Source: Fidelibacterota bacterium
GTDB lineage: Bacteria; Fidelibacterota; Marinisomatia; Marinisomatales; TCS55
Reading direction: 5' to 3'
NCBI GenBank assembly: GCA_046861385.1
Contig: JBHHTW010000005.1
Location: 1-64,000 of the forward strand
Length of the DNA: 64,000 nucleotides
In this document: piece by piece, positions 77 through 41,066 of the stretch
How positions within the stretch are numbered: the first letter of the stretch is position 1
Layout: every line of letters begins with the position of its first letter
Program-made: the position numbers and the translations under genes
The notes under the pieces: model-generated
The model's input: only the letters and a program-made list of their open reading frames with translations
What the model was told of the DNA's origin: nothing
Databases searched by the model: none

Positions 77-128
77 TATGTTTAATGGAAAGTGGAAGAC
101 GAACTAAATAACCGAATTTGAGAACTAA

Positions 129-1058
129 ATGGAAGCAAGTATAACACTAAAAAAGGTCGGTAAACTCATAGGAGATAAGACCGTTCTGGCAAGCCTGACT
201 TTCGGAATTGAAAAAGGGTCACTGGTTGCTTTGGTCGGCGATAATGATGCAGGGAAATCAGCATTGTTAAAAGTTCTGGCTGGTTTGGAAAACCCTAATT
301 ATGGATCTGTCTTTTTGCACGGGCTTGACACGGATAAGCGACGGTTGGAAACCCGGAAAACAGTCGCTTACATTCCCCATGATGTTGATCTTGATCCATG
401 GTTGACTTTGGAACAGAATATCATTTTCGATGCACTTCTTTACAATATGCATAAAAAGGACATTGAGCCATTGATTCACGAATATGGAATTGCTCTGGAT
501 ATGGGTGATTTTATGTATTCCTTAGCCAGTGTTGTTCCAACAGGAATACAGAAAAAAGCTATGATCATCCGGGCATTGACGCATGATCCATCTATTATCA
601 TCATGGATGAACCAACTGCATTTATGGATGCTCCATCGAGACGACTTACGTGGGATTTAATGCGTAAATTTAAAGGAAGTAAAACGATAGTGTATTCGAG
701 CCAGTTTTTACCGGAAGTTGAAGCAGCCAACGACCGTATTATGGTTATATACGAGGGTCGGATTCTTTTAGACGGTAGTTTAGACAAATTACTGGAAAGC
801 ACACTGGAATATCATCAATTTGCGATTGAATTTGAGGAACTATCAGACAATATTTTTTCAACATTATCTGGTGTTCCCACTGTTGTAAATCCAACAAAAG
901 TGGGAAATACTTTTCATTTCTACGGTCGATCAAGAAAAGTATTTTTTGAAGTTTTAAACGCATGTGCCGGAGCCTTAATGACGGACTTATCCATTCAAAA
1001 ACTATCTCTTCAAGATTTATTGGACTCAGCTTTTGCTCAGAAAGGGATGAATGAATGA
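129..1058 (+). CDS. ABC transporter ATP-binding protein (ABC-2/DrrA-like, degenerate motifs)
   Basis: Walker A-like GDNDAGKS and Walker B IIIMDEPT; followed by a permease gene. Confidence 0.9.
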   Translation: MEASITLKKVGKLIGDKTVLASLTFGIEKGSLVALVGDNDAGKSALLKVLAGLENPNYGSVFLHGLDTDKRRLETRKTVAYIPHDVDLDPWLTLEQNIIFDALLYNMHKKDIEPLIHEYGIALDMGDFMYSLASVVPTGIQKKAMIIRALTHDPSIIIMDEPTAFMDAPSRRLTWDLMRKFKGSKTIVYSSQFLPEVEAANDRIMVIYEGRILLDGSLDKLLESTLEYHQFAIEFEELSDNIFSTLSGVPTVVNPTKVGNTFHFYGRSRKVFFEVLNACAGALMTDLSIQKLSLQDLLDSAFAQKGMNE

Positions 1059-33460: not shown

Positions 33461-35095
33461 TTATTCTTTTGCCATAAAAGGATAACGATAATCCTTAGGC
33501 GGATCGAAAGTTTCTTTTATCGTTCGCTGTGATACCCAGCGAATCAGGTTGAAAATAGAGCCTGCTTTATCATTTGTCCCGGAGGCACGACTTCCGCCAA
33601 AAGGCTGTTGCCCTACTACCGCACCAGTGGGTTTATCGTTAATATAAAAATTACCTGCAGCGTGGGTCAATCGCTTGGAGGCTATCTCCACCGCTTTTCT
33701 GTCCAGACCAAACACACACCCCGTAAGGGCATAAGGGGAAGTTTCATCTATCAGATTTAAAGTTTTTTCCCAATCATCCGGATCATACAAATAAATCGTT
33801 AATACAGGACCAAAAATTTCCTCACACATGGTACAATATTTTGGATCAGAAGTTAAGATAGTTGTTGGTTCGATAAAATATCCGATTGAATCATCGTAGT
33901 TCCCTCCCGTAATGATTTCTGCATTGGTATCCTTTTGGGCGTTGTCGATATATGAAGTAATTGTATCAAAAGCAGCCTGATCAATCACTGCATTCATGAA
34001 ATTGGTAAAATCCTCGGAATCCCCCATTTTTATCGTTTCTACTTGTGTAATATATTTTTCTTTCACGGTATCCCAAATGGTCGTTGGAATGTAGGCACGA
34101 GAAAGAGCAGAGCATTTTTGTCCTTGATACTCAAAAGCACCACGAACCATAGCGGTGACTAGTGCATCGATATCTGATGAATCGTGAGCAATGCAAAAAT
34201 CTTTTCCTCCTGTTTCACCCACAATCCGAGGGTAGGTTTTGTAACCCTTAATATTATTACCTATTTCCGACCACATACCCTGAAAAACCTTTGTCGATCC
34301 GGTAAAATGAACACCGGCTAGATTTTCATCCTTCATGACAATAGGACCCACAGTGGAACCAGAGCCGGGAATGAAATTAATAACACCATCAGGAATTCCC
34401 GCTCTACGAAAGAGATCCATAATATAATGGGCGCTATAAACTGCGCTGGATGCAGGTTTCCACAAAACGACATTTCCCATAAGGGCCGGTGACATGGGAA
34501 GATTACCCGCAATCGATGTAAAATTGAATGGCGTCACTGCAAAAACGAATCCTTCTAATGACCGATGCTCCAATCGATTCCACATCCCATCGGGAGAATA
34601 AGTGGGCTGCTGCTCATATAATTCCTGGGCATACCAACAGTTAAAATTTAGAAAGTCAATAAATTCGCAGGCAGAATCAATTTCAGCTTGATAGGCATTT
34701 TTACTTTGACCCAACATAGTAGCGGCATTGAGCGTTTGCTCTTCATGGCGTTGAAGGATGGAAGCCATTTTCTTAAATATAGCTGCCCGCGCTTCCCAAG
34801 GCGTTTTAGACCAAGAACTCCAAGCGTCCATAGACGCTTCGATGGCCAATTTTATTTCTTTTTCACCTGCTTGATGGAAATATCCCAAAATATGCTGATG
34901 GTTATGGGGAACTCTCATTTCACCCATATTTCCGGTCTTTATTTCTTGCCCTCCGATAATGAGAGGTACTTCAATTTCTTGTGATTTTAATTCTTCAATT
35001 CTTTTTTTTAGTGCAGCTTTTTCCAGTGAGCCGGGAGCATAGGAAAGGATGGGTTCGTTAAATGGTTTGGGTACGATGGCTTTTGCATTCTGCAT
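33461..35095 (-). CDS. pruA: Delta-1-pyrroline-5-carboxylate (L-glutamate gamma-semialdehyde) dehydrogenase
   Basis: NEPILSYAPGS, PFNFT, GETGGKD, YQGQKCSA and QQPFGGSRASGTNDK. Confidence 0.95.
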   Translation of the reverse strand: MQNAKAIVPKPFNEPILSYAPGSLEKAALKKRIEELKSQEIEVPLIIGGQEIKTGNMGEMRVPHNHQHILGYFHQAGEKEIKLAIEASMDAWSSWSKTPWEARAAIFKKMASILQRHEEQTLNAATMLGQSKNAYQAEIDSACEFIDFLNFNCWYAQELYEQQPTYSPDGMWNRLEHRSLEGFVFAVTPFNFTSIAGNLPMSPALMGNVVLWKPASSAVYSAHYIMDLFRRAGIPDGVINFIPGSGSTVGPIVMKDENLAGVHFTGSTKVFQGMWSEIGNNIKGYKTYPRIVGETGGKDFCIAHDSSDIDALVTAMVRGAFEYQGQKCSALSRAYIPTTIWDTVKEKYITQVETIKMGDSEDFTNFMNAVIDQAAFDTITSYIDNAQKDTNAEIITGGNYDDSIGYFIEPTTILTSDPKYCTMCEEIFGPVLTIYLYDPDDWEKTLNLIDETSPYALTGCVFGLDRKAVEIASKRLTHAAGNFYINDKPTGAVVGQQPFGGSRASGTNDKAGSIFNLIRWVSQRTIKETFDPPKDYRYPFMAKE

Positions 35096-35189
35096 ATTAG
35101 ACCTGTTCTTAACTTCAATTATTTGTTAGAGAGTAGTAAACTAACTCAATATAACACTATACTTGTCGATAGCAAAATCATACATTTCA

Positions 35190-35247
35190 ATAATTATTTA
35201 AAACGTAAAACGTAAAAGAAATATATAATTACGTTTTAAATAATTAT
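35190..35247. repeat. Perfect 19-bp inverted repeat with 20-bp spacer
   Basis: ATAATTATTTAAAACGTAA (35190-35208) and TTACGTTTTAAATAATTAT (35229-35247). Confidence 0.9.
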
Positions 35248-35400
35248 GTTTTATGTATAACAGCGCTCCTAATTTTCTACCCATGTAAACTTATTAATTC
35301 TTAAACCGGCGAATAATCAGGTTAAAACTATTTAGTGAATTTTAGCCAAGGAATTTACCAAATTTACAGACTGCGAATCAAGGTAAGGAGTTGGGGAATT

Positions 35401-35536
35401 TATGGAATATGGAACATAGAAAATACTAGACCGCAGAACACATAGCATAGGCAGGGAAGATGGAGGGTGATGCATAACTAATTATTCTAATTATTGTACA
35501 GCCAATCATCCAATCTATCAATCTATCAATCAATCA
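35401..35536. repeat. Degenerate short tandem repeats downstream of dusB
   Basis: TATGGAATATGGAACATAGAA and GGAAGATGGAG share words with the 1-76 repeat; CAATCTATCAATCTATCAATCAATC abuts the dusB stop. Confidence 0.6.
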
Positions 35537-36502
35537 TTCACCCATTTTTTCTTTCTCCAAAAGGTTCTTCATCTCATCTTTTCCTTGTGCTGTTACCAAT
35601 GACTGTCTGAGAGCGGCCGCCCCGGGGAAACCTTTTATATACCATCCGAAATGCTTTCTCATGAGATTACTGCCAATTTTTTCACCGCGGGATTCGATGA
35701 GTAATTCCAAATGCCGTATGCACATGTCCATACGATCTTGAATTCCGGGCGTAGAAGGAAGGGGAGTGCTGTATAAAAAGGCGCTAGCCTGTTTAAAAAA
35801 CCAGGGATTACCCATTGCACCCCGACCAATCATGACTGCGTCACAGTTGGTTTCTTGAAACATTTGAAGTACATCGTCCGGTTTTTTTATATCCCCATTT
35901 CCAATGACAGGAATGGAAACAGATCGTTTTAATTCTGCAATTAATTCCCAATTGGCATTTCCTTTATAGTTTTGTTTTGTGGTTCGAGGGTGGAGTGTAA
36001 TGGCTTTTATACCAATTTTTTCTAGTCGAATCCCTGCTTCATTTGCTATAATACTGGATGAATCCCAGCCGGCTCGCATTTTGACCGTGACAGGCAATTC
36101 CGGTACTGATTCTACAACTGCGGAAGTAATATCGTCCATAAGACATAAGTCTTTCAAAGCTGCTGATCCGGCACCTTTTTTGGTCACCTTGGGTACGGGA
36201 CAACCATAATTAATATCAATAATGTCAGGTTTGAATTTATCGGCGACCATTCGCGCTGCTTTGCCCATGACGTCTGGAGAATCACCAAAGATTTGAATGC
36301 CAATTGGTCGTTCAGCTTCAGTAAATCGAATCATATCCAATGTTTTTTCGTTTTCACGAATGATACCGTGGGCAGAAACAAATTCAGAATAGACCATTCC
36401 GGCGCCCATTTCCTTGCACAACATACGGAAAGAATAGTCGGTGACTCCGGCCATAGGAGCAAGGAAAACTGGTGTTTTAATATTTACATTGCCGATTTGC
36501 AT
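35534..36502 (-). CDS. dusB: tRNA-dihydrouridine synthase B
   Basis: LAPMAGVTD, IDINYGCP, GAGSAAL, IGNGDI and MIGRGAMGNPW. Confidence 0.96.
   Translation of the reverse strand: MQIGNVNIKTPVFLAPMAGVTDYSFRMLCKEMGAGMVYSEFVSAHGIIRENEKTLDMIRFTEAERPIGIQIFGDSPDVMGKAARMVADKFKPDIIDINYGCPVPKVTKKGAGSAALKDLCLMDDITSAVVESVPELPVTVKMRAGWDSSSIIANEAGIRLEKIGIKAITLHPRTTKQNYKGNANWELIAELKRSVSIPVIGNGDIKKPDDVLQMFQETNCDAVMIGRGAMGNPWFFKQASAFLYSTPLPSTPGIQDRMDMCIRHLELLIESRGEKIGSNLMRKHFGWYIKGFPGAAALRQSLVTAQGKDEMKNLLEKEKMGE
36374..36502 (-). repeat. Direct repeat copy 1: dusB 5' end within the intact gene
   Basis: 36387-36502 is identical to 37773-37888 (116 bp); extends to 36374 with two synonymous mismatches. Confidence 0.97.
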
Positions 36503-36527
36503 GATTGAATAATCAGGATTCGTGTTA

Positions 36528-37649
36528 TTATTTCAAGAAGTCATCCATATTATCAGGTGTAATTATTTGGCTGGTCCCGATATCGTATTCATTCATAAAT
36601 GTTTTTGGAAACCGTACGTTTTTTGTAGGATTCCACTTAAACTCAAATGCATGTAAAAGACCATCCCGTTCTTCAATATAATCAATTTCCTGTTGCTGGG
36701 TAGTTCGCCAATAAAAGCAATTCGACCATTTTTGTTTATAAGCGATTTGTTTTCGTCTTTCACCTAAAATAAAATTCTCCCACAATGCGCCTACATCGAG
36801 GCGTAATGCTAAAGGCTGGTATGCTGCAAGGATTGCATTCCGAATCCCATTATCAAAAAAGTATACTTTTCGTTTCGTGTTAATCTCATTTCGGATGTTT
36901 CTGGCGAATGGCTTAAGACGGTATACAATAAATGCTTTCTCGAGTAAATCCAAATAGTTCATAACTGTTTTTTTATCGACCTCTAACAATCTACCTAATT
37001 CACTAAAGGATACTTCATTTCCTATTTGCAGTGCAAGTGCTTGAAGTAACTTTTCCAGTAATTCCGGTTTTCGCAATCCTTTGTAGGATAAAATATCCTT
37101 GTATAGGAAACTGGAAGCTAATTGGGTTAGAATTTCATTTTCATTCCCTGGATGGTTTATCACATCGGGATACATTCCATAGATTAATCGTTGCTCCAAT
37201 TGCCCTTTGGCAGAAAGATAACCTATATCATTTGTTAATTCATTCCAACTAATAGGATAAAGCATGTATTCTAATTTTCTACCAGTGAGCGGTTCATTTA
37301 TATTAGAAGAAATTTCCAATGCTGACGACCCACTTACCATTACATTTATATCAGGAAAAGTGTCATGAATTAACTTTAAAAGCAAACCACTATTCTTTAC
37401 TCTTTGTATTTCATCAATAAAGACTCGTTTATGTTCTCCAAGGATCACACGGATTTGCTCGACAGACTTTAATTCTAAATTAATTCGAATATTAGGGTCA
37501 TCGCAATTCAACCAAAGGTGCGATCCTGTTTCTTGAGCTATCTGTTTCATCAAGGTCGTTTTACCTGTTTGGCGAGGTCCGAGGATAACAATGGTCTTTT
37601 TTGACCATTTATTGGTCATTAGTGTTTGATATATTTGTCTATTTATCAT
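36528..37649 (-). CDS. AAA+ ATPase (AAA_14) with C-terminal DUF4143 domain
   Basis: Walker A GPRQTGKT, Walker B VFIDEIQ, SGSS, LTGRK; C-terminal YWRT..QEIDYI...AFEFKW; start probably ATG 37649 (ORF track 37670). Confidence 0.92.
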   Translation of the reverse strand: MINRQIYQTLMTNKWSKKTIVILGPRQTGKTTLMKQIAQETGSHLWLNCDDPNIRINLELKSVEQIRVILGEHKRVFIDEIQRVKNSGLLLKLIHDTFPDINVMVSGSSALEISSNINEPLTGRKLEYMLYPISWNELTNDIGYLSAKGQLEQRLIYGMYPDVINHPGNENEILTQLASSFLYKDILSYKGLRKPELLEKLLQALALQIGNEVSFSELGRLLEVDKKTVMNYLDLLEKAFIVYRLKPFARNIRNEINTKRKVYFFDNGIRNAILAAYQPLALRLDVGALWENFILGERRKQIAYKQKWSNCFYWRTTQQQEIDYIEERDGLLHAFEFKWNPTKNVRFPKTFMNEYDIGTSQIITPDNMDDFLK

Positions 37650-37741
37650 TTTTTTCACGATTGTATTCACCGAATATTATAATATATAGGGATTATAATC
37701 AATATTAAAAAAACGAATTCAAAATCGAATCCCTCACGAGT

Positions 37742-37888
37742 TCAAATGATACTATGTGAAGACACAAATTCGGAATAGACCATTCCGGCGCCCATTTCCT
37801 TGCACAACATACGGAAAGAATAGTCGGTGACTCCGGCCATAGGAGCAAGGAAAACTGGTGTTTTAATATTTACATTGCCGATTTGCAT
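37742..37888 (-). pseudogene. dusB: Truncated dusB 5' fragment (48 aa); direct repeat copy 2
   Basis: Reads MQIGNVNIKTPVFLAPMAGVTDYSFRMLCKEMGAGMVYSEFVSSHSII-stop, against ...FVSAHGIIREN in the intact gene. Confidence 0.93.
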
Positions 37889-38098
37889 ATGCGAATTTAT
37901 TATGAATCCTTTAAGAGGAAAAAATATTGAATATTCATCATTCTTCCAGAAATTATTCAGTGTTTAACGGATCCTTGACCAAACAGTCATTCAAACATGG
38001 AATCATTCATTCCTCACATTGAAAGATAGTAATTTGTAAGAATGAAATGTTGCATTAAATTCGCCGGCAAAATTATACAAAAATAGGAAGAATTTATT

Positions 38099-38335
38099 AT
38101 GAGTAGAATATGTGACGTCACCGGCAAAAAACCCATGTATGGGAATAACGTGAGTCATGCGCACAATAAAACGCGACGACGCTTTAATATTAATCTCCAG
38201 AGGAAGCGTTTTTGGCTTCCTGACGAGAAACGATATATAACGCTGAACGTATCAACGCAGGGTATGCGGTTAATTGATAAAAAGGGGATTACAAGAGTCG
38301 TAAGTGAAATGCGCATTCGAGGTGTAAAAGTTTAA
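38099..38335 (+). CDS. rpmB: 50S ribosomal protein L28
   Basis: [29 protein letters not shown]. Confidence 0.98.
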
Positions 38336-38360
38336 CAAACATTATTAATCATCTTTAATG

Positions 38361-38395
38361 AAAAACCCTTTGCCTTTCGGCAAAGGGTTTTTTTT
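38361..38395 (+). terminator. Rho-independent terminator, probably bidirectional
   Basis: AAAAACCCTTTGCC-tttc-GGCAAAGGGTTTTTTTT between the convergent rpmB and ftsZ genes. Confidence 0.92.
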
Positions 38396-38445
38396 AACTT
38401 AACTTGCTTGGCCAAACCCAAGAATTCTTACGTTTTTATTGTTTA

Positions 38446-38551
38446 GTCATTGCGAGGATTCCGATTTATCGGATGACGCGGTAATCTCCTTTCTTTGAAG
38501 AATGCGAGAAGATCGCTTCATCCCGCCATAAATGACGGGATTCGCGATGAC
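38446..38551. repeat. Palindromic REP/RPE-like miniature element (GTCATTGCGAG...TCGCGATGAC type)
   Basis: Termini GTCATTGCGAG and TTCGCGATGAC pair; internal hairpins TCCGAT-tt-ATCGGA and TCCCG...CGGGA; GCGGTAATCT/AGATCGC arm. Confidence 0.75.
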
Positions 38552-38558
38552 ATTATTT

Positions 38559-39749
38559 TTACTCATGTTGGCGGCGAATAAAAGCCGGTATTTCAATATC
38601 GTCTCCATAGATCACCGGATTTGTATCATCAAAATGGAATTTTGAGATAGAGGGTCGTTCGCTTTTAGGCTCCGATACAACTTTCTGATTAAACAGAGGA
38701 ACGTTTTCCTGATCCGCAAGAATTCTTGCCTGCTTTTGTCTGGGGATTTCGTTAACTTGTTTTGTTTCTGTATTCACTTCCTTCGGAATCCTCTGATTAA
38801 ATCCGGTTGCGATCACCGTAACACGAATTTCTTCAGTCATCCTCGGATCGATTACAGCACCAAAAATAATATTAGCATCATCACCCGCTTCTTCGAAAAT
38901 GATAGATGTCGCTTCATCCACTTCCATTAATGTAAGGTCTGGTCCGCCGGTAATATTCACCAAGACACCCTGTGCTCCACTGATCGATGCACTATCCAAA
39001 AGTGGACTCGATATCGCTTGTTGTGCCGCTAATACAGCCCGTTCTTCACCGCCGGCCACACCGGTACCCATAATCGCCTCACCCATATTTTTCATAATGG
39101 TTTCCACATCAGCGAAGTCCAGATTAATTAACCCGTGTACATTGATTAAATCCGAAATTCCTTTTGCTGCTTGATGGAGTATGGAGTCAGCCAATTTGAA
39201 TGCTTCAAGAACAGTGGTATTACTGTCCACAATTGACATTAATTTCTGATTCGGTATTGAGATAACTGTGTCACATGATTTCCGTAAGTCGGAAAGACCT
39301 CCTAATCCACGATTCATGCGCTTGGGACCTTCAAAATTAAAGGGAAGAGTAATGATTCCAACGGTAAGAATTTCCATTTCCTTTGCCATTTGAGCAACGG
39401 CAGATGCTGCGCCGGTTCCTGTGCCACCACCCATTCCAGCCGTAATGAAAACCATATCAGCTCCTGTTAAAACACTCTCGACTGCTTCACGATCTGATTC
39501 AACTGCTTCTCTGCCAACATCCGACTTTGCTCCGGCACCGAGACCCTTGGTGAGATTTTTACCAATTTGTATTTTATGTTTGGCTGCATTGTTTTCCAGG
39601 TCTTGGGCGTCAGTATTGATTACAATAAAATCTACACCTTGCATTCCTGCTTGTATCATGCGGTTCACAGCGTTTCCGCCTGCTCCGCCTACTCCTATGA
39701 CTTTCAGTTTGGCTTTTTGTTCAGCAATACTATCAAATTCAAATAACAT
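38559..39749 (-). CDS. ftsZ: Cell division protein FtsZ
   Basis: VIGVGGAGGNAV, GMGGGTGTG, NLDFAD and C-terminal DIEIPAFIR. Confidence 0.99.
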   Translation of the reverse strand: MLFEFDSIAEQKAKLKVIGVGGAGGNAVNRMIQAGMQGVDFIVINTDAQDLENNAAKHKIQIGKNLTKGLGAGAKSDVGREAVESDREAVESVLTGADMVFITAGMGGGTGTGAASAVAQMAKEMEILTVGIITLPFNFEGPKRMNRGLGGLSDLRKSCDTVISIPNQKLMSIVDSNTTVLEAFKLADSILHQAAKGISDLINVHGLINLDFADVETIMKNMGEAIMGTGVAGGEERAVLAAQQAISSPLLDSASISGAQGVLVNITGGPDLTLMEVDEATSIIFEEAGDDANIIFGAVIDPRMTEEIRVTVIATGFNQRIPKEVNTETKQVNEIPRQKQARILADQENVPLFNQKVVSEPKSERPSISKFHFDDTNPVIYGDDIEIPAFIRRQHE

Positions 39750-39791
39750 AGGTGTTCTCCTTTAGTTTGGTCGTTAAGTATGTGTTAATTA

Positions 39792-41066
39792 TCAATAGAA
39801 TCCTTTTATCCATTGCTTGAGCCATCCGACGGCTCGATCAAATGTTGGTTTCTCGGGCATGGATGTCGGAGATAGTTCACGTTTTAAATCCATCCAATGT
39901 GTCAGTCCGATGACGGTTGTGAACTCTGCTTCGGACACCATGTCAACGGCACCGCTAATATTTTTTGGAATACCTTTCCGAACTCTCATTTTTAAGATTT
40001 CCTCCGCTAATGGAGTAATATTCCGTAATTGAGAACCGCCACCGGTAAGGACGACTCCATAGGTTAATTGATCTCGAACATCAGCCCGATGTATTTCTCT
40101 CGCAATCAGTTGAAGAATTTCGACTGCCCGCGCTTCCACATATCTGGATAATTCATGTTCAGAAACTTTTCTTGCAAGACCGCCATTTTTTACAGGAAGA
40201 TCAAATTCCAATTCTGTAGATGACATGGAGGCTTTTGCAGACGCATATTTTCTTTTAATCTTTTCGGCTTCATCAATACCAATTTGAAGCATGACAGCAA
40301 TATCGTTTGTGATACTATTTGAACCAATTCCCAAAACAGCCGAGTGACGAATACCATCTTCATGATAGACCACTATTTCCGTTGTTCCGCCGCCAATATT
40401 CACAATGGCGACACCCAAATCTTTTTCATCGGTGTCTAAAGTTGTCAGGGCACAGGCCAATCCCTGGAATACAAGACCTTCCACTTTAATACCAAGTTCT
40501 TCTGTACAATTAACCAAATTTTTTGCCGCAGAGCTTGGAACAGTTATTAAATGAACCTTTGCTTCTAATCTTCGTCCTGACATTCCAACCGGATCTTTAA
40601 TTTTATCCATAGTGTCTATGACGTATTCCTGTGGAAGAACATGCATGATATCCCTATCGGCAGGAAGAGAGAGCGCCCTAGCCATTTCCATTACCCGGAA
40701 CACATCATATTCAGTAATCTCATTTTCCACTGGGATGGTTGAATGCTGATTTCGTTGAATGGCAATAGCTCCCTGCGTATTGATACCCCTGATATTTTCA
40801 CCCGAAATGCTTAATACAGCCTTTTCTACTTTTTGTCCCGACATGAGTTCGGTATCTTTTACCGCAGCTTCCATCGCATCCATCAATTTATCACGGTGAA
40901 TGACAGATCCGTTTTTCAGGCCAGCTGAAGGGGCTCGACCCAAGCCCAATAATTTCACTTCATTTGTTCCATGGGATTTATCAACAATGGCACATGTGAT
41001 ATATGATGAACCGACATCCAAGCCAATTCTGATTTGCTGAGGGATGTTTTTATGAATTGATTTCAC
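39792..41066 (-). CDS. ftsA: Cell division protein FtsA
   Basis: GLDVGS, NIGGGTT and VLTGGGS; dcw position. Confidence 0.96.
   Translation of the reverse strand: MKSIHKNIPQQIRIGLDVGSSYITCAIVDKSHGTNEVKLLGLGRAPSAGLKNGSVIHRDKLMDAMEAAVKDTELMSGQKVEKAVLSISGENIRGINTQGAIAIQRNQHSTIPVENEITEYDVFRVMEMARALSLPADRDIMHVLPQEYVIDTMDKIKDPVGMSGRRLEAKVHLITVPSSAAKNLVNCTEELGIKVEGLVFQGLACALTTLDTDEKDLGVAIVNIGGGTTEIVVYHEDGIRHSAVLGIGSNSITNDIAVMLQIGIDEAEKIKRKYASAKASMSSTELEFDLPVKNGGLARKVSEHELSRYVEARAVEILQLIAREIHRADVRDQLTYGVVLTGGGSQLRNITPLAEEILKMRVRKGIPKNISGAVDMVSEAEFTTVIGLTHWMDLKRELSPTSMPEKPTFDRAVGWLKQWIKGFY

Follow-up and report, generated by a model that had tools for sequence, protein, structure and literature searches.

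Restriction-modification (R-M) genes can insert with long target duplication, giving inserts without mobility genes that are flanked by direct repeats of 45–423 bp, often across start or stop sites (Furuta, Abe and Kobayashi 2010, PMC2853133). The accessible part of that paper suggests double-strand breakage as a common factor and gives no mechanism, and it recognises such inserts by direct repeats longer than 30 bp, a single-copy empty site in a relative, an insert shorter than 20 kb without mobility genes, and homologues of both R and M genes. A second described system is that of the dusA-specific islands, which replace the 5' end of the gene and have semi-conserved att repeats of 21 bp; the part of the source available to us mentions one dusB case (Farrugia et al. 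2015, PMC4482086). Here we analyse the first 64,000 nt of contig JBHHTW010000005.1 of a Fidelibacterota bacterium (GenBank assembly GCA_046861385.1, forward strand; "the window" below), in which the start of dusB occurs twice, on either side of a single gene for an ATPase and predicted nuclease of the PDC-S01 family. Insertion with long target duplication was reportedly first described by Nobusato et al. in 2000. Related geometries arise by Campbell-type insertion, in which a single crossover integrates a circle that carries a gene's 5' fragment, so that the insert comes to lie between a truncated and an intact copy, and in the "minimal mobile elements" of naturally transformable bacteria, which are exchanged through flanking homology and whose cargo varies at a fixed slot. 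We consider the 1386-bp unit in dusB to be probably a one-gene cassette (an AT-rich leader and the PDC-S01 gene) that entered by insertion with long target duplication and was later homogenised and exchanged by homologous recombination.

The locus contains a single direct repeat, 36359–36502 and 37745–37888 (144 nt, 96% identity, spacing 1386), and alignment shows that its copies are identical without a break for 116 nt from the ATG (36387–36502 and 37773–37888). Past this block there are two synonymous differences, TCT/TCC and GTT/GTG, and then a 2-nt gap that leads to a stop in the upstream copy, so that this stub ends SSHSII-stop where the intact gene reads SAHGIIREN. A perfect 116-nt repeat within 64 kb is far beyond chance, and the next longest direct-repeat families in 34000–41000 are 14–31 nt long and 66–100% identical. 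Between the repeats lie 1.24 kb with one open reading frame (ORF), carrying AAA_14 and DUF4143 domains. The first-pass annotation of the window had described just such a duplicated dusB start around one ATPase gene and a single-gene insert, lacking an integrase, that leaves the target gene intact; both descriptions were confirmed. As that annotation also proposed, recombination between the repeats, inside the 116 identical nucleotides, would by simple logic give back an uninterrupted dusB. The GC content of the cargo gene is 34–36%, against 41–44% in neighbouring genes. The features of the locus are the following, where G000 is the genome of the window, G001–G005 are its congeners, and L and C numbers denote fetched loci and contigs:

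38099..38335, plus strand: rpmB (ribosomal protein L28; TIGR00009, 8.5e-28), the conserved divergent neighbour of dusB
37889..38098, minus strand: native rpmB–dusB intergenic region (~210 nt), now ahead of the stub and collinear with the undisturbed region of G002
37742..37888, minus strand: dusB stub, 48 codons and TGA, the displaced original 5' end (Pfam Dus, 1.7e-08)
37773..37888, minus strand: the 116-nt identical block in its upstream copy, from the ATG to +116 (repeat search and alignment)
37650..37741, minus strand: AT-rich cassette leader of 92 nt with promoter-like hexamers and short palindromes (hexamer and repeat scans)
36528..37649, minus strand: cargo gene, 373 codons and stop, with AAA+ ATPase, winged-helix region and C-terminal PD-(D/E)xK domain (Pfam AAA_14 and DUF4143; PADLOC PDC-S01)
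36503..36527, minus strand: spacer of 25 nt separating the ATPase stop from the start codon of dusB and forming the upstream margin of the duplicated target (~20 of 29 positions agree in an alignment with the native sequence ahead of dusB in G002)
36387..36502, minus strand: the 116-nt identical block in its downstream copy, at the head of the intact gene (repeat search and alignment)
35534..36502, minus strand: intact dusB, 322 aa (TIGR00737 equivalog, 381.5 bits against a cut-off of 293.3; Pfam Dus, 1.3e-89)

The intact dusB is 79–86% identical to its congeneric counterparts across residues 1–317 or more, and the gene survives the insertion because its first ~170 bases were duplicated. The native intergenic region presumably holds the native dusB promoter, and a promoter-type function seems plausible for the AT-rich leader, where sigma-70-like matches lie on the minus strand at 37708–37679/37681 and the repeat search found palindromes I5 and I20. 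The promoter scan gave no more sigma-70-like matches than shuffled sequence (11, with 7.8 +/- 2.8 expected), and a terminator scan of the region gave no excess over shuffles. Separately, an 8-nt unit runs across the dusB stop and the bases just downstream (35502–35548), as three overlapping 31-nt copies spaced 8 nt apart and 77–100% alike.

Comparison with the undisturbed locus of G002 shows which copy was displaced. In G000, rpmB, the intergenic region and the stub are collinear with G002 (74.7% over 612 columns), so the stub is the original 5' end, displaced together with its native promoter region. The copy in front of the intact gene matches the G002 upstream sequence only from about -23 to -25 (BLAST and alignment), and the stub remains dus-like to about +147/150. 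By these matches, the duplicated target segment runs from about -25 to +147/150 of dusB, some 170 bp. Its edges are ~60–79% identical (23 of 31 positions over +117..+147, with weak similarity over -30..-1) around a centre that is identical at 116 of 116 positions, which suggests that the duplication is old and that its centre has been homogenised. A fresh insertion would leave the whole segment identical; gene conversion is therefore preferred, and the 116-nt block reads better as conversion between old repeats. The first-pass annotation had likened the divergence beyond the block to an attL/attR hybrid from recombination with an incoming dus fragment, a view that we abandon: such edges, and the presence of a stub in three sister species as well, show that the insert is not recent.

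We looked for a second dusB start in 41 genomes of the genus, family and order and in 80 metagenomic dusB loci. It was present in 4 of the 41 genomes (G000, G001, G004 and G005), all of one genus, and in one metagenomic locus, which is G005-like; the other 79 had a single start. In G002, rpmB and dusB are ~230 nt apart with a single dusB start, that is, an empty site. The FtsZ/FtsA identities to G000 are 87.4/84.2% for G002, 93.9/91.0% for G004 and 91.4/93.2% for the G005-like locus; as the value of G002 is the lowest, it can be placed as the outgroup to G000, G004 and G005. G004 and G005 carry a stub, then a decayed DUF559 gene (Vsr/restriction-endonuclease-like; matches of 3.5e-26 and 3.2e-14 in these islets) on the opposite strand, and then dusB. 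In G001 the stub is truncated at +104 and sits amid an rve-type transposase, a Phd/ParE pair and an IS4-type transposase; further insertion sequence (IS) genes precede the full dusB. Empty sites and alternative cargo in relatives, which the first-pass annotation had named as what to look for, were thus both found. In G000 the homology of the stub stops at ~+147/150; the stubs of G004 and G005 stop at +153, within ~6 nt of the same point. A right-hand junction out to about -90 is common to G001, G004 and G005, so the duplications of these three can be traced to one event. The most economical history would begin with a single insertion in an ancestor that duplicated the site, after which the content turned over. 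A BLAST search for remnants of the DUF559 islet in the G000 islet gave no similarity except one weak 79-column match to G001.

The same diversity of content fits another explanation: a tandem duplication of the dusB start, or an old insertion of other DNA, made a neutral slot between two homologous arms, the ATPase gene is just one of several unrelated pieces of DNA that arrived or were exchanged there afterwards, and the duplication has nothing to do with the ATPase family. Four related genomes do differ in what lies between stub and gene (the ATPase; DUF559 remnants; Phd/ParE with three IS-type transposase genes), and the rpmB–dusB spacer receives genes elsewhere. Of the 80 metagenomic loci, 60 have rpmB as the upstream neighbour of dusB. 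The spacer between the two has a median length of 134 nt in these loci, being at most 260 nt in 42 and above 400 nt in 18. In other marine lineages the spacer holds ordinary genes, GNAT-like, GT2-like, or GT2-like with amidohydrolase-like, as named from their translations, and spacers of this kind, free of any dusB duplication, occur in L077, L078, L086, L100, L103, L104, L109, L113, L122 and L131. G005 itself has three more ORFs (179, 248 and 277 aa) between rpmB and the stub (L062 2489–5419; L046); none of the three matches PADLOC and the two larger ones (from L046) have no Pfam match, hinting that this spacer has taken up a second, uncharacterised insertion. On the other side, the DUF559 cargo is nuclease-like too, in keeping with the published link of duplications to DNA-cutting genes as far as the source consulted goes (PMC2853133), and, as described below, the same ATPase family is bracketed by repeats at unrelated sites. 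We regard a neutral slot as an unlikely origin, though one to keep in mind.

A repeat of this length also raises the question of the assembly. We examined contigs of four runs from one sample, possibly the source of the window, together with their 31-mer graph. Every junction piece was present in the contigs of all four runs, and none of the contigs listed spans the whole stretch. The pieces, arranged as A-R-B-R-C (R being the repeat), fit equally well an undisturbed dusB, A-R-C, with the 1.39-kb unit as a circle R-B or placed elsewhere, in which case the 116-nt repeat would have misled the assembler. We find this most improbable. In each of the four runs the 116-nt block collapses to one contig whose depth is about double that of the flanks, and the islet piece is covered as deeply as the flanks are (41.6/54.6/50.2/34.5 against 33–61). 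The diverged tail of the stub is contiguous with the islet piece (contig record 36473–37802), and a 1.39-kb circle would carry no replication gene. Moreover, the same stub-plus-gene architecture with other cargo was assembled in G005 and in the independent metagenomic contig L062; the G004 assembly is broken at the repeat (contigs C14 and C15). One of the runs, X2, additionally contains a 501-nt contig of depth 6.3 that joins dusB +123..152 (window 36351–36380; 30 bases match) to a stub junction resembling the G004/G005 type; because this low-depth contig carries that junction, a relative with DUF559 cargo may coexist in the same sample.

The cargo protein matches AAA_14 (2.9e-30) and DUF4143 (9.2e-42) of Pfam and, essentially end to end, the PADLOC PDC-S01 model PDLC04789 (1.8e-154; residues 1–372 on profile positions 1–373 of 375). 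As this profile matches from residue 1, the likely start is the ATG at 37649 (373 aa) and not the GTG at 37670. An alignment of 55 sequences shows no variation in the Walker A and B motifs or at E291, D323 and K338, and almost none at E336, and the PD-(D/E)xK-like tail that the first-pass annotation had pointed out is intact. A search of the PDB by sequence returned at most marginal P-loop matches (E 0.002–0.004). Residues 1–275 of an AlphaFold (AF2) model (predicted local distance difference test, pLDDT, 90.6) align with the archaeal AAA+ ATPases 2qen and 2fna (Z 16.4) and then with STAND, ORC/Cdc6 and clamp-loader ATPases. The C-terminal domain modelled alone (pLDDT 86.5) matches almost solely PD-(D/E)xK folds (Can2/Card1, NucS, VRR-NUC, BpuSI, McrC, TnsA and Hjc), with Z scores of 4.4–6.8 that fall below the caution line of 8, and DUF4143 is listed in a survey of the PD-(D/E)xK superfamily, of which part was available (PMC3424549). 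We therefore predict, from these profiles and models, an NTP-dependent DNA nuclease.

PDC-S01 is a family label for a candidate antiviral gene and not a known function. According to the accessible portion of one report, it is the fourth most common "defence" system in prokaryotes, with ~39,000 copies detected (PMC12988326). According to the portion available of another, a representative tried in E. coli B against T7, T5 and T4 was not among the four systems reported to protect (bioRxiv 10.1101/2024.09.26.614923). The cargo may serve in defence or may be selfish, and the predicted DNA-breaking activity of its product may favour such insertions. The closest relatives of the focal ATPase share 84–85% amino acid identity with it. 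Many close homologues lie on contigs of 1.2–1.8 kb, about the size of one cassette, as would be expected if the repeats break assemblies; short contigs dominate the collection in any case.

The dusB site is not the only one of its kind. G000 carries nine AAA_14/DUF4143 genes, whose products are 28–51% identical to the focal one, and three of the nine are bracketed by direct repeats of host-gene ends: the 5' ends of dusB and serC, and one 3' end. The repeats measure 144 nt at dusB, 97 and 74 nt at serC and 44 nt at the third site, on contig C1, and all three ATPases belong to PDC-S01. The serC site (L005) is a nested version of the dusB architecture that its repeats split over three contigs: the end of C63 holds the native upstream genes and a serC start; C59, a whole contig of 1735 nt, holds the first stub, a terminator hairpin, a second stub of 16 codons, the ATPase gene and the regenerated serC start; and the start of C57 holds the serC body. 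At the C1 site (C1:4289–5772; L006 1190–2673) the 3' end of an upstream secreted-protein gene (44 nt, 95%) is repeated after the ATPase gene. No conserved cassette ends were recognised among the three G000 cassettes. Perfect 13-nt inverted repeats with TTACATGG/CCATGTAA stand directly ahead of two of the three ATPase starts (L006 ~1370–1420; L005, minus strand, ~1350–1400), one of them overlapping the ATG, and may be an operator for the ATPase's own winged-helix domain; the focal cassette carries ATTATAAT palindromes instead.

The footprint recurs in other species. Starting from an alignment of the seven closest sequences we obtained 76 testable orthologue loci, ~50% identical and mostly from Bacteroidota. 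Direct repeats of at least 25 nt flank nine of them and inverted repeats flank three; the direct repeats are again host-gene ends, for example the 3' parts of rfbA, of an oxidoreductase beta subunit gene and of a TonB-dependent receptor gene. Across these unrelated targets the repeats range from 42 to 545 nt. As a control we took 460 ORFs of 300–450 aa from G000; nine had such repeats, two of which were the ATPase genes themselves, leaving 7 of 458, and the difference from 9 of 76 gives a Fisher odds ratio of 8.7 (p = 8e-5). Two of the control ORFs with repeats, a secreted beta-propeller-like protein gene (C26:1568–1605/3050–3087; 38 nt, 100%) and one with a C-terminal sorting-domain-like end (C6:54075–54133/55360–55418; 59 nt, 97%), probably owe them to the repeated ends of paralogous neighbours. 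The first-pass annotation had suggested a search for other DUF4143 ATPases flanked by duplicated gene starts; ATPases between duplicated gene ends are present both in G000 and among the orthologues. This recurrence speaks against a slot formed independently of the ATPase, and the footprint appears, on these comparisons, to belong to the ATPase gene family and not to dusB.

The recurrence also bears on the integrase islands. A tyrosine-integrase island could have entered dusB through an att site, supplying a new 5' end for the gene, and could later have lost its integrase and nearly all of its cargo. The geometry would be the same as in the dusA islands, with a displaced original 5' end and a regenerated gene, and the accessible text on those islands does mention one dusB case (PMC4482086). 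We nonetheless judge this very unlikely: the att repeats there are 21 bp long as against the ~170 bp duplicated here, the footprint of 42–545 nt is found at unrelated genes, and no integrase or integrase fragment was detected in the four islets (G000, G001, G004 and G005). Matches to PF00589 in G000 occur only on C80, C3 and C56, as two full-length tyrosine recombinases (C80 and C3) and a 54-aa fragment. Several proposals of the first-pass annotation find no support. The cassette is not "dusB-targeting" in the manner of dusA islands, given that the same family sits at the serC 5' end, at another 3' end, and at rfbA, oxidoreductase and TonB-receptor 3' ends in other phyla; the search for a dus-associated integrase elsewhere led just to the two full-length recombinases on other contigs; and nothing indicates a remnant of a larger island.

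The serC and C1 cassettes are informative about how such units travel. G001 shares both of them with G000 (93.5% and 93.8% amino acid identity, respectively), with the same junctions. No ATPase gene was found beside serC in the fetched G003 and G005 loci. The C1 site is an undisturbed 40-nt spacer in G002 and an unrelated 221-nt spacer in G005, and in G004 it holds a ~230-nt remnant made up of cassette leader and last codons. Between G000 and G001, synonymous divergence (dS) at the C1 site is 0.25 for the ATPase gene, as compared with 0.87 and saturation for the flanking genes; at the serC site it is 0.38 for the ATPase gene, 0.70 for serC and 1.05–1.26 for the upstream genes. Cassette synonymous divergence is in this way 2–4 times below that of the flanks at both sites, which suggests that the two cassettes were exchanged between the G000 and G001 lineages after speciation. 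The synonymous divergence of dusB itself in this pair is saturated. Within serC, the proportion of synonymous differences (pS) climbs from 0.36 to 0.56 with distance from the cassette, a gradient that points to homologous recombination with crossovers in the flanks. The first-pass suggestion that the cassette spread by homologous recombination fits these sister cassettes, where dS is lower than in the flanks. We withdrew an initial description of the young block at the C1 site as limited to the ORF: the leader identity of 76–78% equals the synonymous identity of the ORF (pS 0.21), so the young block is the whole cassette and may reach into the flanks. The ratio of nonsynonymous to synonymous divergence is ~0.1 in both ATPase pairs, and the genes are therefore under purifying selection.

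Taken together, we would propose the following course of events for insertion with long target duplication at dusB. The first entry would have been an illegitimate or break-repair event that required no site-specific recombinase and by which ~170 bp of dusB came to lie on both sides of the insert. The upstream copy keeps the presumed native promoter and is a dead 48-codon stub; the downstream copy heads the intact dusB, which would be transcribed by read-through from the native promoter and/or from a promoter of the cassette. The duplication would have arisen once, in the ancestor of the G000 species and three sister species, after which the content between the copies may have turned over (to the ATPase here and to DUF559 remnants or Phd/ParE with IS genes in the others) and gene conversion may have homogenised the central 116 bp. 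Later persistence, loss and exchange would have proceeded by ordinary homologous recombination using the duplicated and flanking homology, perhaps with excision as a 1.39-kb circle and Campbell-type re-entry.

Several points weigh against this proposal. Turnover of the content is inferred and not observed. The cargo differs between sister species whose stubs stop almost together, and the site may have been a favoured one that was entered twice, independently. The orthologue of the focal ATPase is absent from the five congeners, no ATPase gene was present in any of the 80 metagenomic dusB loci, and no orthologue appeared at E <= 1e-130 to 1e-150 in the other 232 genomes of the order, 306 of the class and 400 sampled from the phylum, where not all first-look candidates were scored; the arrival of the focal ATPase cannot be dated for this reason. 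No flanking repeat is detectable around six of the nine paralogues and 67 of the 76 orthologues, and the control ORFs were all drawn from a single genome, the test loci from many, among which related genomes are not independent. Since the 116-nt repeat exceeds the word length, the graph reads alike for the integrated form and for an empty site with a circle. The pS windows are short and noisy. A mechanism that makes long target duplications is not given in the literature, as far as the part of the source available to us goes (PMC2853133). Finally, G000 has no near-identical ATPase copies at different sites, the closest paralogue being 51% identical, so movement to new sites is rare or old.

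A variant of the proposal makes the PDC-S01 ATPase-nuclease the agent of its own spread, a one-gene autonomous element whose NTP-driven nuclease would introduce widely staggered or paired breaks at gene boundaries, with repair installing the gene between long duplications of variable length. This strikes us as a doubtful extension at present, and if it were true, the fourth most common "defence" gene would represent a new class of mobile element and the long target duplication would be explained. G000 offers a compact natural system in either case, with three cassettes of one family at three targets, and sister species with empty sites, a remnant and other nuclease cargo at the same breakpoints. 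The synonymous-site evidence suggests that homologous recombination carries such cassettes from one species to another. In practical terms, the flanking repeats break assemblies (C63, C59 and C57 in G000; C14 and C15 in G004), and the stubs can be annotated as pseudogenes of essential genes.

In our literature search, which for the most part stopped short of full texts and excluded supplements, we found no published link of the PDC-S01 family to long target duplications and no account of its movement. To the family as defined in PADLOC (PDC-S01, COG1373) the dusB cargo corresponds from end to end, with the same architecture of an ATPase and a PD-(D/E)xK domain. The dusA/dusB islands resemble the dusB cassette in that the 5' end of a dus gene is replaced, the original is displaced and excision restores the gene (for the cassette, by prediction); on the other hand, the islands have a dedicated integrase, tens of kb of DNA and 21-bp att repeats, whereas the cassette has no integrase, an insert of 1.2 kb and a repeat of ~170 bp (116 of them identical). 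Campbell-type insertion reproduces the dusB geometry exactly and would make an excised unit re-insertable, but leaves unexplained how the cassette was first joined to a dusB fragment. The closest likeness is to the R-M inserts described by Furuta et al.: the dusB cassette lies between direct repeats of more than 30 bp, has an unoccupied counterpart in a relative (both copies align to G002) and is a short insert without mobility genes; it differs in having no R-M pair, its one gene encoding an ATPase-nuclease unaccompanied by a methyltransferase. In both systems the cargo is of a DNA-cutting type (here by prediction) and the neighbouring gene survives through a repeat at its start or stop codon. 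What sets the dusB locus apart from the published R-M inserts is a slot common to sister species with different cargo, an old repeat with a homogenised centre, and the exchange of sister cassettes. The dusB insert clearly exemplifies a mode of insertion that is known but lacks a mechanistic explanation, in this case with a nuclease gene that is not part of an R-M system. To the published description it adds that a single genome has three targets, that sister species share a duplicated slot whose nuclease or toxin cargo differs, and that synonymous sites give evidence of homologous exchange.

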